A stretch of 64,000 nt of DNA from positions 1 through 64,000 of the forward strand of contig CAWAPJ010000012.1 of the NCBI GenBank assembly GCA_963783885.1, given 5' to 3'. Positions within the stretch are counted from its first letter, which is position 1, and each line of letters opens with the position of its first letter. The notes below the pieces were generated by a model. It worked only from the letters and a program-made list of their open reading frames with translations. It had not been told where the DNA came from and searched no databases. Source of the stretch: Waddliaceae bacterium. GTDB taxonomy: Bacteria; Chlamydiota; Chlamydiia; Chlamydiales; SLFE01. Position numbers and translations under genes: made by a program. Positions 5,704 through 50,100 of the stretch are shown here, one piece after another.

Positions 5704-6953
5704 TCGAAACTTTCCTATACATCTTTTTCCTCCTTTTTCTTACTTATTGGTCGGGATTTTTTTCAGGTTCCGAAATCGCTTTATTCTCCCTTTCTTCGAC
5801 AAAAGTAAGGTCGTACCGCACTTCGCAAGATTATCGAAGGCGTTTAATTTCAAGACTTCTCAATCAGCCCCGCAACCTGATCGTAACGATTTATATCATG
5901 AACACCCTCGTCAACATTTTAATGCAGAACGTATCGTCGAGCATGTTCGGCGTCTCATCAAGCTGGTGGCTGAAAGTCGGCGTCCCCCTTTTGATCACCC
6001 TGATTCTTGGCGAAATCATCCCCAAGTATATCGCAATGCAGAAAAACGAATCCTTTGCCTATCGTGTGATCCCTCTAATCAATCTGTTTACAAACATCTT
6101 AAAGCCTATAAGGGAAGTGATGGTCAAGATCACAACGCCCATTTCAAGAGTGATGTATTTTTTTCTGAAAAAAGAAAAAACCATGTCTAAAGATGAGCTC
6201 TATCATGTCTTGAAAACTTCCGAAGAGTCCGGGGTTTTAAACTCTGATGAAACAACATTAATTTCCGGCTATATCAACTTGCAAGACGACCAGGTCGATG
6301 AGCATATGCACCCAAGGGAAGATGTCATTTTTTACAATATCGACGACCCCCTCTCAAAACTCATCTATCTTTTCGTCGAAGAAGAGTGCACAAGAATTCC
6401 TGTATGCAGAGGCGAACTTGACGATGTCATCGGAGTCATCAGCGCGAATGACTTTTTTCTTTATAAGCCGATGCTGAATACCCCGGATGATATCAAACCA
6501 ATTATGTCAAAACCATTTTTTCTTCCCGAAAGCACGCCGGCTCGGACAATGCTTAAGCGATTCGAAGAAAAAAATCAGCAGATGGCTCTTATAGTCGATG
6601 AGCACCGTTCGGTAACCGGCCTGATTACCATTGAAGACATCGTTGAAGAGGTTGTGGGCGAAATCACTGACCGCAGAGATCAGCAGCAGATGTATGAAGA
6701 GGTTGCCGGCGGCGCGCTCATTGCAAGCGGGAAAATGGAACTGGATGATTTGGAGGAAGTGCTCGGCATCGCATTGGAAAGCGAGCACCATCTCAAAACG
6801 ATCGGCGGCTGGCTGACGGAGCAGTTGGGGGATATCCCCGCTGTGGGAACAAAATATGAAACCAAGGAGCTCCTATTTCAAGTGCTGGCCGCCGAACCGA
6901 ATAAAATCAAAAGAATTTATATAACGAAAAAGGAGGGCAAAAAAAATGTCTGA
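5700..6953 (+). CDS. CNNM/CBS/CorC-HlyC family protein
   Basis: FFSGSEIALFS, GEIIPK, CBS pair, VDEH...GLITIEDIVEEVVGEI. Confidence 0.92.
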   Translation: MIETFLYIFFLLFLTYWSGFFSGSEIALFSLSSTKVRSYRTSQDYRRRLISRLLNQPRNLIVTIYIMNTLVNILMQNVSSSMFGVSSSWWLKVGVPLLITLILGEIIPKYIAMQKNESFAYRVIPLINLFTNILKPIREVMVKITTPISRVMYFFLKKEKTMSKDELYHVLKTSEESGVLNSDETTLISGYINLQDDQVDEHMHPREDVIFYNIDDPLSKLIYLFVEEECTRIPVCRGELDDVIGVISANDFFLYKPMLNTPDDIKPIMSKPFFLPESTPARTMLKRFEEKNQQMALIVDEHRSVTGLITIEDIVEEVVGEITDRRDQQQMYEEVAGGALIASGKMELDDLEEVLGIALESEHHLKTIGGWLTEQLGDIPAVGTKYETKELLFQVLAAEPNKIKRIYITKKEGKKNV

Positions 6954-21721: not shown

Positions 21722-21782
21722 GGCGTTGCTGCATAAATCACCACCGAGTCGGGGAAAGAGTGGTGAATTGTGCAACGGCGCG
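21722..21782. mobile_element. 61-bp miniature remnant of the IS5/GxxExxY element
   Basis: The left 23 bp are the exact reverse complement of the end of element copy 2 (50015-50037). The right end GTGGTGAATTGTGCAACGGCGCG is a degenerate IR. Confidence 0.75.
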
Positions 21783-22433: not shown

Positions 22434-22630
22434 AATAAACCACCTCTTTAATAAAGATTAAATAAGAGAATATTATATTTAATTGTTTATGTAAAGAGGT
22501 AAATTTGTTATGTTGTTCCAAGAAAATTTTGGCAAAAAGCTACTGTTAAATATTCAAATCTTTTTGGCTTTGTTGCGTAATTAACCACAGAGCTCACAAG
22601 AGCGCACAGAGAGAATATGAGAGATTTGAT

Positions 22631-23575
22631 TTAAGCTGCTATTAATTCACTTTCAGGCATTCCCAGCTTTGTCATTATATTTAGTGCTTCACATTTTGCC
22701 CTTGATTCAGCCCTTTGGGTTTCCAGAGTTCTACTTCTTAAATCATTTCCAAAGAATCGTTTAAATCTAAACATGGCTGTTTCTGCAAGTGATCGACGAT
22801 GATAACCTTTCAACTTTTTCCATAATTTTCTTGCATCATCATCACCTCCTAAACCTGAAATTTCCAGCAAACTGATATTCCGCATCTTCCAAGAAGGAGA
22901 TATGTTTTCTCGAAAAACAGCATTCCTATTGGGTGGAATAATAGGAATTGAGCCGTGAACTACATTTGCAGCATAGCATCGCTTAGTATCATAAGCCCCA
23001 TCTCCATATGTGCGCTTAACTGATTTCGGCATTACCTCGAGAAGTTTTGGATACACTTCACAATCTGCAACGTTATTTTCAGTAAGAATTTCGAAAATAA
23101 TTTCGTGAGAGTCAGGGCAGACTGCCAGATGGAGCTTTCTCCATGTTCGCCTTTTACTGATTCCATGCTGCCTAACTTTCCATTCACCCTCTCCGTACAC
23201 TTTCAAACCGGTTGAATCGATTACAATATTGGTGACTTTTTTTTTCGAAAGTTTCTTCAACTCTTGCCCCAACAACTTAGCTCTGCGACAAATTTGAGTA
23301 TAAGAAGGAATCGATAAACCAACAGATAAAATCATAACAAGAGATGTCAAAAATCCTTCGAGTGCTCTCAATGGAAGATGAAAAACCGATCGAATAATGA
23401 GCGCGGTGAGAATAGCGTTATCAGAATAGAGTTTTGGACGCCCCTTTTTTCCTATTTCTTTTGGAGCCATCCACTTATTGATAGCATCTTCAGAAAACCA
23501 AACAGTTATGCTTCCCCTTTGAATAAGAGATTTGTTATAGTCGTTCCAGTTGCGAATGCGATATTTTGCCTTCAT
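22631..23575 (-). CDS. IS5-family (IS903 group) DDE transposase
   Basis: NWNDYNKSLIQRGSIT, IDSTGLKVYGEGEW, WRKLHL, GDGAYD and GYHRRSLAETAMFRFK. Confidence 0.96.
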   Translation of the reverse strand: MKAKYRIRNWNDYNKSLIQRGSITVWFSEDAINKWMAPKEIGKKGRPKLYSDNAILTALIIRSVFHLPLRALEGFLTSLVMILSVGLSIPSYTQICRRAKLLGQELKKLSKKKVTNIVIDSTGLKVYGEGEWKVRQHGISKRRTWRKLHLAVCPDSHEIIFEILTENNVADCEVYPKLLEVMPKSVKRTYGDGAYDTKRCYAANVVHGSIPIIPPNRNAVFRENISPSWKMRNISLLEISGLGGDDDARKLWKKLKGYHRRSLAETAMFRFKRFFGNDLRSRTLETQRAESRAKCEALNIMTKLGMPESELIAA

Positions 23576-23659
23576 CTTGATCCTCCAATTTGTTGCAACT
23601 AAAAATTAGAGTATTAGGTATTTGTCGGCAAGCTCGCATTCGCCCTTTTTGGAGAAAAG

Positions 23660-24067
23660 ATGACTAGTACCCACACAACTGAAGAAGCCAACCAAAAAAG
23701 AAATGACCTTTTAACAGGGGAAATCATAGGTGCTGCGATTGAAGTTCATCGAAGATTAGGTCCAGGCTTGCTTGAATCGACATACGAAACTTGTCTTTGC
23801 TACGAGTTGAACCTTGCGGGTTTGAAAGTTAACCGGCAGATACCAGTACCTATTATTTATCGTGATAAAAAGCTAGACTCAGGCTACCGGATCGATATGA
23901 TAGTGGAAGATAAGGTTATTTTGGAGATAAAATCTGTGGCCAATCTCTTGCCTGTTCATGAGGCCCAACTTCTATCCTATCTTAAGCATAATGGCGGTGG
24001 CAGAGGTTTGCTCATCAATTTCAATGTAAAACTTCTAAAAAATGGGATTAGGCGTCTAATCATTTAA
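23660..24067 (+). CDS. GxxExxY protein (PD-(D/E)xK nuclease-like)
   Basis: LGPGLLESTYE, YRIDMIVE, ILEIKS, HEAQLLSYLK and GLLINF. Confidence 0.93.
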   Translation: MTSTHTTEEANQKRNDLLTGEIIGAAIEVHRRLGPGLLESTYETCLCYELNLAGLKVNRQIPVPIIYRDKKLDSGYRIDMIVEDKVILEIKSVANLLPVHEAQLLSYLKHNGGGRGLLINFNVKLLKNGIRRLII

Positions 24068-24196
24068 TTCCTCTCTCATAATCTCTCAGTGAGCTCGGTG
24101 GTCTCAGTGGTGATTTATGCAACAACGCCAATCTTTTTTATGATTTTTTTTGGGTATACCTTACGCCAAAACACTTATTAACATCCATAGTAATCC

Positions 24197-49579: not shown

Positions 49580-49975
49580 ATGACCAGTACTCACTCAACT
49601 AATGAAGCCAACCAAAAAAGAGATGACCTTCTAACAGGTAAAATCATAGGTGCTGCGATTGAAGTTCACCGAAGATTAGGTCCAGGCTTGCTTGAATCAA
49701 CATACGAAACCTGTCTTTGCTACGAATTGAACCTTGCGGGTTTGAAAGTTAACCGGCAGATACCAGTACCTAATAAAAAACTAGACTCAGGCTACCGGAT
49801 CTATATGATAGTGGAAGATAAGGTTATTTTGGAGATAAAATCTGTGGCTAATCTCTTGCCTGTGCATGAAGCCCAACTTCTATCATATCTTAAGCATAAT
49901 GGTGGTGGCAGGGGTTTGCTTATCAATTTCAATGTAAAACTTCTTAAAAATGGGATTAGGCGACTAATCATTTAA
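49580..49975 (+). CDS. GxxExxY protein, copy 2 (12-bp in-frame deletion, RID to RIY)
   Basis: Near-identical to 23660-24067 apart from these changes. Confidence 0.88.
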   Translation: MTSTHSTNEANQKRDDLLTGKIIGAAIEVHRRLGPGLLESTYETCLCYELNLAGLKVNRQIPVPNKKLDSGYRIYMIVEDKVILEIKSVANLLPVHEAQLLSYLKHNGGGRGLLINFNVKLLKNGIRRLII

Positions 49976-50100
49976 TTCCTCTCTCATAATCTCTCAGTGA
50001 GCTCGGTGATCTCAGTGGTGATTTATGCAGCAACGCCCCTGCTCGCTCTACCTGCATTCATATCACATTTTTTTGGGCGATACTATAACATAAGCAAATT

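Follow-up and report, generated by a model that had tools for sequence, protein, structure and literature searches.

Positions 22566–24129 of a 64,000-nucleotide stretch from a Waddliaceae bacterium (contig CAWAPJ010000012.1, positions 1 to 64,000; this whole stretch, with a GC content of 45%, is referred to as the window) were found to form a discrete element of 1,564 bp, which contains two genes and is flanked by a perfect 9-bp direct repeat. The element is probably an active transporter insertion sequence (IS), in which a DDE transposase of the IS903 group and a passenger gene for a GxxExxY protein lie between composite ends, each made of an IS903-type tip and the captured arm of a GxxExxY cassette; the heptad repeats (CACnGAG) in these arms are putative duplex binding sites. 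Elements of the IS903 group have a terminal repeat of ~18 bp beginning with GGC and give a 9-bp target duplication, and a transporter IS is an IS with passenger genes. The anatomy of the ends is composite, the arms are homologous to those of cassettes without IS903 tips, the array-bearing transposases have a single origin in their tree, and the whole unit has moved recently. The parts of the element are as follows.

22557–22565, no strand: target-site duplication, left copy AATCTTTTT; letters identical to 24130–24138, seen also in the empty-site contig described below.
22566–22585, plus strand: left IS903-type terminal repeat (tip), GGCTTTGTTGCGTAATTA and 2 nt; a GGC-TTGTTGC tip as in canonical IS903-group relatives.
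22586–22611, plus strand: left heptad array CACAGAG, CACAAGAG, CACAGAG; spacing 9 and 10 nt.
22612–22624, plus strand: inner arm motif AGAATATGAGAGA, common to the right arm in the arm alignment.
22631–23575, minus strand: DDE transposase, 314 amino acids, IS5 family, IS903 group (PF13737, PF01609, NF033579); reads outward, toward the left tip.
23576–23659, no strand: divergent intergenic region, 84 bp, between the two start codons of the open reading frame (ORF) map; promoters presumed.
23660–24067, plus strand: passenger gene, GxxExxY protein, 135 amino acids, predicted minimal PD-(D/E)XK nuclease fold (TIGR04256, PF13366); reads outward, toward the right tip.
24072–24084, minus strand: inner arm motif AGATTATGAGAGA (minus-strand reading); begins 4 nt past the GxxExxY stop codon.
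24085–24109, minus strand: right heptad array CACTGAG, CACCGAG, CACTGAG, read inward; spacing 9 and 9 nt.
24110–24129, minus strand: right IS903-type terminal repeat (tip), GGCGTTGTTGCATAAATC and 2 nt, from comparison with the ends of relatives.
24130–24138, no strand: target-site duplication, right copy, equal to the left copy AATCTTTTT.

The arms were compared by aligning 22566–22624 with the reverse complement of 24072–24129. An earlier note on this DNA had counted about 47 matches in 59 positions by hand; the alignment returned 47 of 59 matching columns with one 1-nt gap, and when the gap was disallowed the register was lost past position 32. The same note had held that complementarity extends well past the ~18-bp IS903-type repeat. 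Beyond the canonical 18 bp, positions 19–59 match in 33 of 41 columns with an alignment score of 24, which was reached by 0 of 2000 dinucleotide-preserving shuffles (mean 2.0, standard deviation 3.4, maximum 17), so that this claim is borne out. Each arm consists, from the outside in, of a GGC-TTGTTGC-type tip, 2 nt, three CACnGAG units and a AGAWTATGAGAGA motif. The three units per arm that had been reported were located at 22586–22592 (CACAGAG), 22595–22602 (CACAAGAG) and 22605–22611 (CACAGAG) on the left and, going inward, at 24103–24109 (CACTGAG), 24094–24100 (CACCGAG) and 24085–24091 (CACTGAG) on the right. The two arms agree at each of the 18 CAC/GAG positions, and the seven differing columns inside the arrays fall on the free base or the spacers, as expected from the claim that mismatches lie mostly at variable positions. 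The exact triple pattern occurred once in the window at up to three mismatches, against 0.01 occurrences expected; the right arm escapes this search only because of its 1-nt difference in spacing.

In both arms the AGAWTATGAGAGA motif follows the array inward and ends 4–6 nt short of the stop codon of the gene that reads outward there. In G032, the arrays of a cassette (L177) are followed by GAAAATGAGAAATT, and motifs of the ATATGAG/AATGAG type follow the arrays at several ends of miniature inverted-repeat transposable elements (MITEs); here and below, G, L and C numbers denote the genomes, loci and contigs compared, G000 being the source genome of the window. The 3' array begins 19 nt past the GxxExxY stop codon, as it does in stand-alone cassettes, and the 5' array is shifted to the far end of the element by the transposase gene. 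A degenerate copy in the source genome (C28:21979–23560; L015/L018/L022) has a left arm with one heptad, 19 bp between the first and third CACAGAG being deleted, as expected from slippage or recombination between direct units.

The transposase was identified by profile searches (NF033579, 289.6 bits against a cut-off of 140; PF13737, 8.6e-34; PF01609, 5e-21), and the ends of its relatives were measured at 80 loci encoding them. Canonical relatives (42–60% transposase identity; Vibrio, Nostoc, other chlamydiae and more) are ~1,050–1,130 bp long and have repeats of ~16–18 bp, no units and no passenger. Tips GGCTTTGTTGCGTAATTA and GGCGTTGTTGCATAAATC resemble those of ~60 relatives, and when 18 representative ends were aligned from the tip, the left tip GGCTTTGTTGCGTAATTA stood first. 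Of 102 distinct tip-anchored ends in the DNA compared, 66 were without a unit, 8 had one and 28 had two or more. When 27 IS903-group transposases were placed in a maximum-likelihood tree, the five array-bearing ones formed one clade (support 100/99); the other 22 had neither arrays nor GxxExxY and showed plain repeats of ~16–18 bp. One clade member (L112) was scored as being without GxxExxY solely because its contig ends there, and another locus of the same genome (L130) shows tip, arrays, GxxExxY and transposase.

Passenger-free relatives with the same arms, which would speak for arrays of IS origin, were looked for in the same set. The 22 relatives outside the clade are without arrays. A single candidate, L040, was rejected: it aligns to the element from nucleotide 726 onward only, has lost both transposase residues 1–55 and the passenger, and lies within the array clade, and is therefore a gutted copy and not an ancestral form. 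No intact passenger-free IS with heptads was found among the transposase relatives examined. A TTTGTTGCAAC stretch that lies 11–25 nt ahead of the transposase start and might, by eye, be a relic of an inner tip was also rejected, the match being too short and too near the start codon. Elsewhere in the window, at 21722–21781, a 60-bp mini-element consists of two IS903-type tips back to back, each with only the first CAC unit, and a solo tip of this kind was found in the same genome at C25:54753.

Arrays of the same kind were found apart from any IS903 tip. The left array (22586–22611) is homologous to arrays beside stand-alone GxxExxY genes without such tips, and the arrays of the element are homologous to those of L199, L184, L195 and L208. 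The closest GxxExxY gene (L199, sister species, 79% identity) is followed by the same 3' arm, including the CACAAGAG-type unit, and has no tip; its DNA homology to the element ends 16 nt before the IS end. Four forms of array-bearing DNA were distinguished across Chlamydiales: (a) tight cassettes of an array, a ribosome-binding site with the GxxExxY gene and an inverted array, with no IS903 tip (G016, G072, G048, G101, G012, G125 and G057); (b) a GxxExxY gene with an inverted pair of arrays, joined by an AT-rich loop, immediately behind it; (c) gene-less array pairs of 60–300 bp, whose outer ends differ among genomes; and (d) MITEs with IS903 tips, at four of which (L138, L143, L144 and L175) 9-bp duplications were seen by eye. 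The source genome holds 36 arrays of at least three units, 32 of them in IS-homologous DNA and four making up two gene-less pairs without tips (C28:64021–64140 and C40:1138–1235; L258 and L259). Both pairs are absent at the orthologous sites of G001, where the intergenic DNA is replaced and neither boundary nor duplication can be read. With tip-free cassettes sharing the arrays and the array-bearing transposases forming one clade, the earlier proposal that a GxxExxY repeat cassette has fused with IS ends is supported.

The statement in the earlier note that stand-alone GxxExxY genes are often flanked by similar inverted repeats was put on a count with a detector for heptads (an exact 3+N+3 core, a period of 7–11 nt, and at least two units on each side within 150 nt). 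It was positive at 13 of 31 GxxExxY loci (Chlamydiales and four other genomes) and at 0 of 108 shifted control windows; six further loci were excluded because their flanks were too short. CACnGAG arrays proper lie within 150 bp of the gene at 16 of 30 GxxExxY loci of the order, of which four stand beside an IS903-group transposase and 12 are without one in the locus, so that the presence of the units at GxxExxY flanks elsewhere was confirmed. One other locus has array pairs 220–270 bp away, and 13 of the 30 are without CACnGAG arrays, several of these having, in their place, arrays of CGCnGAG, CGCnAAG or CACnAAG units. Comparable arrays of other heptads were seen outside the order, in cyanobacteria, Acidobacteriota and Bacteroidota: seven GxxExxY loci, from one genome each of a Nostoc, a Leptolyngbya, a member of the Pyrinomonadaceae and a Gillisia, have adjoining inverted phased units of the CGCAGAG type, ACAGGAT or CACGAAT.

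At the level of genomes, the strict triple CACnGAG pattern was present in 45 of the 151 sampled genomes of the order, in up to 77+74 and 77+76 copies per genome. The backwards-read pattern, used as a control, was absent in most genomes, with a single match in six and eight matches in one. The same 151 genomes, one of them unscored in the protein searches, were then cross-tabulated against protein matches. GxxExxY was present in 38 of 45 array-bearing genomes and in 14 of 105 others; an IS903-group transposase (E ≤ 1e-10) was present in 19 of 45 and 38 of 105, respectively, which is no link. Three array-rich genomes (G057, G101 and G025, with 151, 153 and 96 arrays) have GxxExxY and gave no transposase match.

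Several further arrangements of heptads were noted. In G016 and G072, a tight cassette is nested in an element of a different IS5 subgroup (NF033580; DUF4096 and DDE_Tnp_1_2), with the arrays bracketing GxxExxY alone; the cassette sits between the transposase stop codon and the tip of that element (L115:459–1852, L184, L168/L169), which is in three pieces in L115. The transposase of G016 was rejected as a partner of the 116 arrays of that genome, its ends having other tips and no units. A ~370-bp intergenic repeat of G022 (L147:5136–5505, L148:1065–1417 and 6148–6495, L149) has its own 42-bp terminal inverted repeats and, at its centre, a near-perfect pair of three CTCTGTG, a T-rich loop and three CACAGAG, which face opposite to the IS arrays. 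Some PF05635 genes of the order (four-helix-bundle, '23S rRNA IVS protein', from intervening sequence) lie between inverted arrays of a strict 7-nt TTCGGAG tandem or of CAATGAT-type or AAAGGCT-type units (L228:1300–2000, L255, L257), and in G057 the TTCGGAG unit also makes up the outer end of the CACnGAG elements. Array pairs inside elements with ACAGGAT-type outer heptads were seen in G018, G014 and G052 (L173, L174, L179, L185); the same unit was seen beside a GxxExxY gene of a Pyrinomonadaceae genome (L219).

Mobility of the whole unit was assessed from its copies. The source genome contains nine full-length copies at 99–100% identity, together with deleted and older variants, and the sister genome G001 contains at least 15 copies. 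Perfect 9-bp duplications flank seven of the nine full-length copies, and two internal-deletion derivatives with both arms (C16, 378 bp; C33, 608 bp) have duplications of their own; two full-length copies and two variants among the source-genome copies checked were without a perfect duplication. All 17 GxxExxY matches in the source genome fall in IS-homologous DNA. In DNA metagenomes from soil and salt marsh, 18 runs hold at least half of the sampled words of the element, and one contig (151 nt, depth 3.4) joins 22556 to 24130, skipping 1,573 bases with 9 letters that fit both sides. This contig is a precise empty site with one target copy. Identical copies, their own duplications and the empty site thus indicate that the transposase and the passenger, which the terminal repeats enclose, travel together. 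Searches for an empty site with the left flank gave no match in G001 or G002; the right flank is conserved in G001, where the upstream region is rearranged and no clean comparison of filled and empty sites can be made. A second, older copy of the element lies in the window at 48857–50037 (85–91% identical in pieces) with a fragmented transposase part and an intact GxxExxY frame (92.6% amino acid identity; ratio of non-synonymous to synonymous rates (dN/dS) 0.10), and a similar copy lies at C6:39949–42508.

To our knowledge, GxxExxY/PDDEXK_3 is a large family of many phyla with no known function. The passenger product scored 148 bits against TIGR04256 (cut-off 35) and 8e-42 against PF13366 (PDDEXK_3). 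Residues G34, G36, E39, Y42, D79, E89, K91, Q103, Y107 and N120 are invariant in 24 relatives, as is the GxxExxY motif itself (G36-L-L-E39-S-T-Y42), and D79, E89 and K91 form the predicted catalytic set of a PD-(D/E)XK nuclease. The AlphaFold2 model (pLDDT 92, pTM 0.83) gave weak rows in a Foldseek search of solved structures, led by Cas4 SSO0001 (E 4.6e-3, TM 0.45) and Hjc, a junction resolvase of archaea (E 8.3e-3); when solved structures were searched by sequence, RelE chains alone came up, at E 0.38–0.83, which is not meaningful. Compared with two older copies of the same genome whose transposase frames contain stops, the gene shows 18 synonymous and 5–7 non-synonymous changes (dN/dS 0.07–0.10), and dN/dS was 0.17 against the stand-alone gene of the sister species. 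Judged by these ratios, GxxExxY is under purifying selection. In metatranscriptomes, two runs from different studies yielded one contig each, both only inside the GxxExxY gene (23733–23949 and 23903–24015); this is a weak hint of expression, as contigs from RNA libraries do not prove transcription, and the stretches without coverage carry no information either way.

Between lineages of the transporter IS, synonymous sites are saturated (proportion of differing synonymous sites, pS, 0.75–0.85). In 18 representatives of 34 distinct ends, the ACCAC-GAG unit and the CAC-GAG units after it are kept, and the free base, the spacers and the distance from tip to array vary. Because CAC and GAG are kept despite saturated synonymous sites and varying neighbours, the triplets are under constraint. 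The arms were also folded as the 3' ends of transcripts. Each arm alone is no stabler than its shuffles (z -0.02 and +0.20), and since the two genes diverge, a transcript begun inside the element carries one arm only. Moreover, the mismatches between the arms sit exactly where a stem would require pairing. With arms that are unstructured singly and borne on different transcripts, duplex protein-binding sites are favoured over a hairpin in this element, as far as sequence and folding can tell; in stand-alone cassettes an RNA or cruciform role may apply.

Taken together, the preferred reading of the element would run as follows. The outer 18–20 bp of each arm is an ordinary IS903-type terminal repeat, which the transposase would use to cut and paste the unit with a 9-bp duplication. 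The inner ~39 bp (three CACnGAG heptads and AGAWTATGAGAGA) is probably the arm of a heptad-armed GxxExxY cassette and not ancestral IS DNA. The repeat family of this cassette occurs throughout Chlamydiales, both with a gene and as hairpins without one, and was probably captured once by this IS lineage. As both genes read outward and the same arm follows each, the 3' arm of the cassette was most likely copied to the transposase end too. The GxxExxY protein, or another cassette-specific factor, would bind the phased heptads as sites in duplex DNA; the passenger would need them, hence their retention, and the transposase would need the tips only. Of these, the GxxExxY PD-(D/E)XK protein is our tentative candidate for what binds them.

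A number of observations weigh against this reading. The transfer of the arm to the transposase end is reconstructed and was not observed, though it is the most likely course. On the GxxExxY tree, labels of heptad type required nine changes for CACnGAG against 10.5 when shuffled, and 90 of 500 shuffles were as low; the types being unclustered on an unresolved tree, co-variation lends no support to recognition of the heptads by the protein. Arrays are retained beside the tips in all lineages of the transporter IS and also in the IS903-tipped MITEs found in G025, G028 and G072, which also fits a transposase that now uses the arrays. The empty site depends on the single 151-nt contig. In the cross-tabulation, the genomes are mutually related and many are incomplete, and 7 of the 45 array-bearing ones gave no GxxExxY match. 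PF05635 genes are also enriched (21 of 45 array-bearing genomes against 6 of 105 others), and cassette-rich genomes may therefore explain part of the association between GxxExxY and arrays. As an alternative cargo of CACnGAG arrays, PF05635 genes were rejected: 0 of 16 scored PF05635 loci of the order carry these arrays, and three of the 16 carry other heptads. The physical linkage of CACnGAG arrays to GxxExxY, as against PF05635, is specific.

A bolder proposal, which we put forward tentatively and hold to be rather unlikely, gives GxxExxY the role of the nuclease in a system of selfish palindromes comparable to that of repetitive extragenic palindromes (REPs), their hairpin-forming doublets (REPINs) and REP-associated tyrosine transposases (RAYTs), with a PD-(D/E)XK protein as driver. 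The protein would bind the heptads and cut or resolve paired arms (for example an extruded cruciform, in the manner of the similar-sized Hjc), thereby spreading gene-less hairpins to ~150 copies per genome across many phyla. In the element described here, this system would have merged with a DDE transposase, so that two unrelated nucleases share composite ends.

Alternatively, the heptads might be subterminal binding sites of this transposase clade, either original or co-opted after capture, that aid synapsis or end recognition in the way that repeated sites work in transposons with multipartite ends. Every clade member has about three units at both ends, the IS903-tipped MITEs in which 9-bp duplications were seen by eye retain their arrays, and the deletion derivatives on C16 and C33, with both arms, still have duplications. 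Against this, many array elements have other tips or none, no transposase link exists at genome level, genomes with 96–153 arrays gave no transposase match, and the 22 relatives outside the clade are without arrays. The distance from tip to array is also loose, ranging from 2 nt to ~50 nt across elements (~50 nt in MITE L175). The copy on C28 has lost two of its three left units, but its transposase is also broken and it therefore says little. Overall, we regard a transposase role for the heptads as unlikely.

Another role for the arms would be as RNA or single strand, either in hairpins that terminate or stabilise a transcript or in stems that enclose the ORF and are processed in the manner of RNase III; the IS copies would be a remnant of that role. 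Inverted array pairs directly past GxxExxY stop codons do fold strongly (z -7.6 in L128, -4.5 in L199 and -13.6 in L144). The arms of stand-alone cassettes bracket the ORF tightly, the innermost unit abutting the ribosome-binding site, and in Coxiella an ORF-bearing stem, the IVS, is reported to be cut out by RNase III (PMC4990558). This role is quite improbable for the present element: with divergent genes no single internal transcript has both arms, each arm alone is unstructured, and it is CAC/GAG rather than pairing that is conserved, with many pairs showing differences between their arms at the free base and spacers. Very improbable, finally, is that the heptads are here a neutral leftover of capture with no present function, for although the degenerate C28 copy has lost two units via deletion between repeats, lineages at pS 0.75–0.85 keep CAC and GAG at both ends while their neighbours vary, unlike neutral DNA.

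Literature searches on GxxExxY, PDDEXK_3, chlamydial MITEs and IS903 subterminal sites turned up no account of these arrays; the additional files of PMC3733652 (which list repeats and REPtrons, units of RAYT gene and repeats, and may name related repeats of the PVC group) lay outside the search. Among the matches listed, no work naming GxxExxY deals with its biology, and one uses it as a domain label beside a reverse transcriptase. In a table of PMC3424549, the function of PDDEXK_3 is entered as Unknown. The element links the GxxExxY protein with one particular DNA signal, arrays of phased heptads, in a setting open to direct tests: a small, active, multi-copy transposon whose ends divide into a portion for the transposase and a portion from the cassette. 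In the 45 array-bearing genomes of the order, tens to ~150 intergenic palindromes per genome are explained by a single short repeat module, which bears on the annotation, assembly and genome evolution of these bacteria. If the GxxExxY protein does act on the arrays, a new kind of self-spreading element would be at hand.

The element was compared with four known systems. The 23S rRNA IVS of Coxiella burnetii, with S23p, is described in PMC4990558 as a small ORF of unknown function between inverted repeats, a selfish insertion with horizontal spread. A small ORF bracketed by inverted repeats is shared with the present element. The element, however, lies outside rRNA (its flanks are protein-coding or intergenic DNA, not 23S rRNA), its ORF belongs to PF13366 and not PF05635, and its arms cannot pair within one transcript. 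REPtrons, as presented in PMC3733652, have gene copies between inverted short repeats and scattered gene-less palindromes. The likeness extends to one or few gene copies flanked by inverted short repeats, to tens to ~150 gene-less intergenic palindromic copies and, in some relatives, to CTAC/GTAG next to the arrays. In contrast to a REPtron, the arms enclose only a DDE transposase gene and the gene of a PD-(D/E)XK protein, with no RAYT gene between the repeats; the cassette gene is of the PD-(D/E)XK type and not an HUH tyrosine transposase, and the repeats are three phased heptads and not a single GTAG-tagged palindrome.

In Tn7, Mu, the IR/DR elements of the Tc1 family and plant MITEs with subterminal repeats, the element's own transposase binds repeated subterminal sites. 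Several short direct repeats just inside each terminal repeat, inverted at the two ends, are found here as well, but these repeats occur widely without this transposase. Likeness to the IS903 group lies in the NF033579 DDE transposase, the GGC-TTGTTGC tips and the 9-bp target duplication, and likeness to a transporter IS in a passenger gene that the terminal repeats enclose and that is carried along when the element moves. Unlike IS903-group relatives (~1,050–1,130 bp, arms of ~16–18 bp), and departing from the one-ORF form of ~1.05 kb, the element is a passenger-carrying variant of 1,564 bp with two genes and arms of 59 bp, the extra 39 bp being phased heptads that also occur apart from any IS903 element. 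In kind, therefore, it is a known type, a passenger-carrying IS903-group element; its extra arm DNA belongs to a widespread repeat-armed nuclease cassette not found described, and new is the active chimera of a heptad-armed GxxExxY cassette with a DDE transposase.

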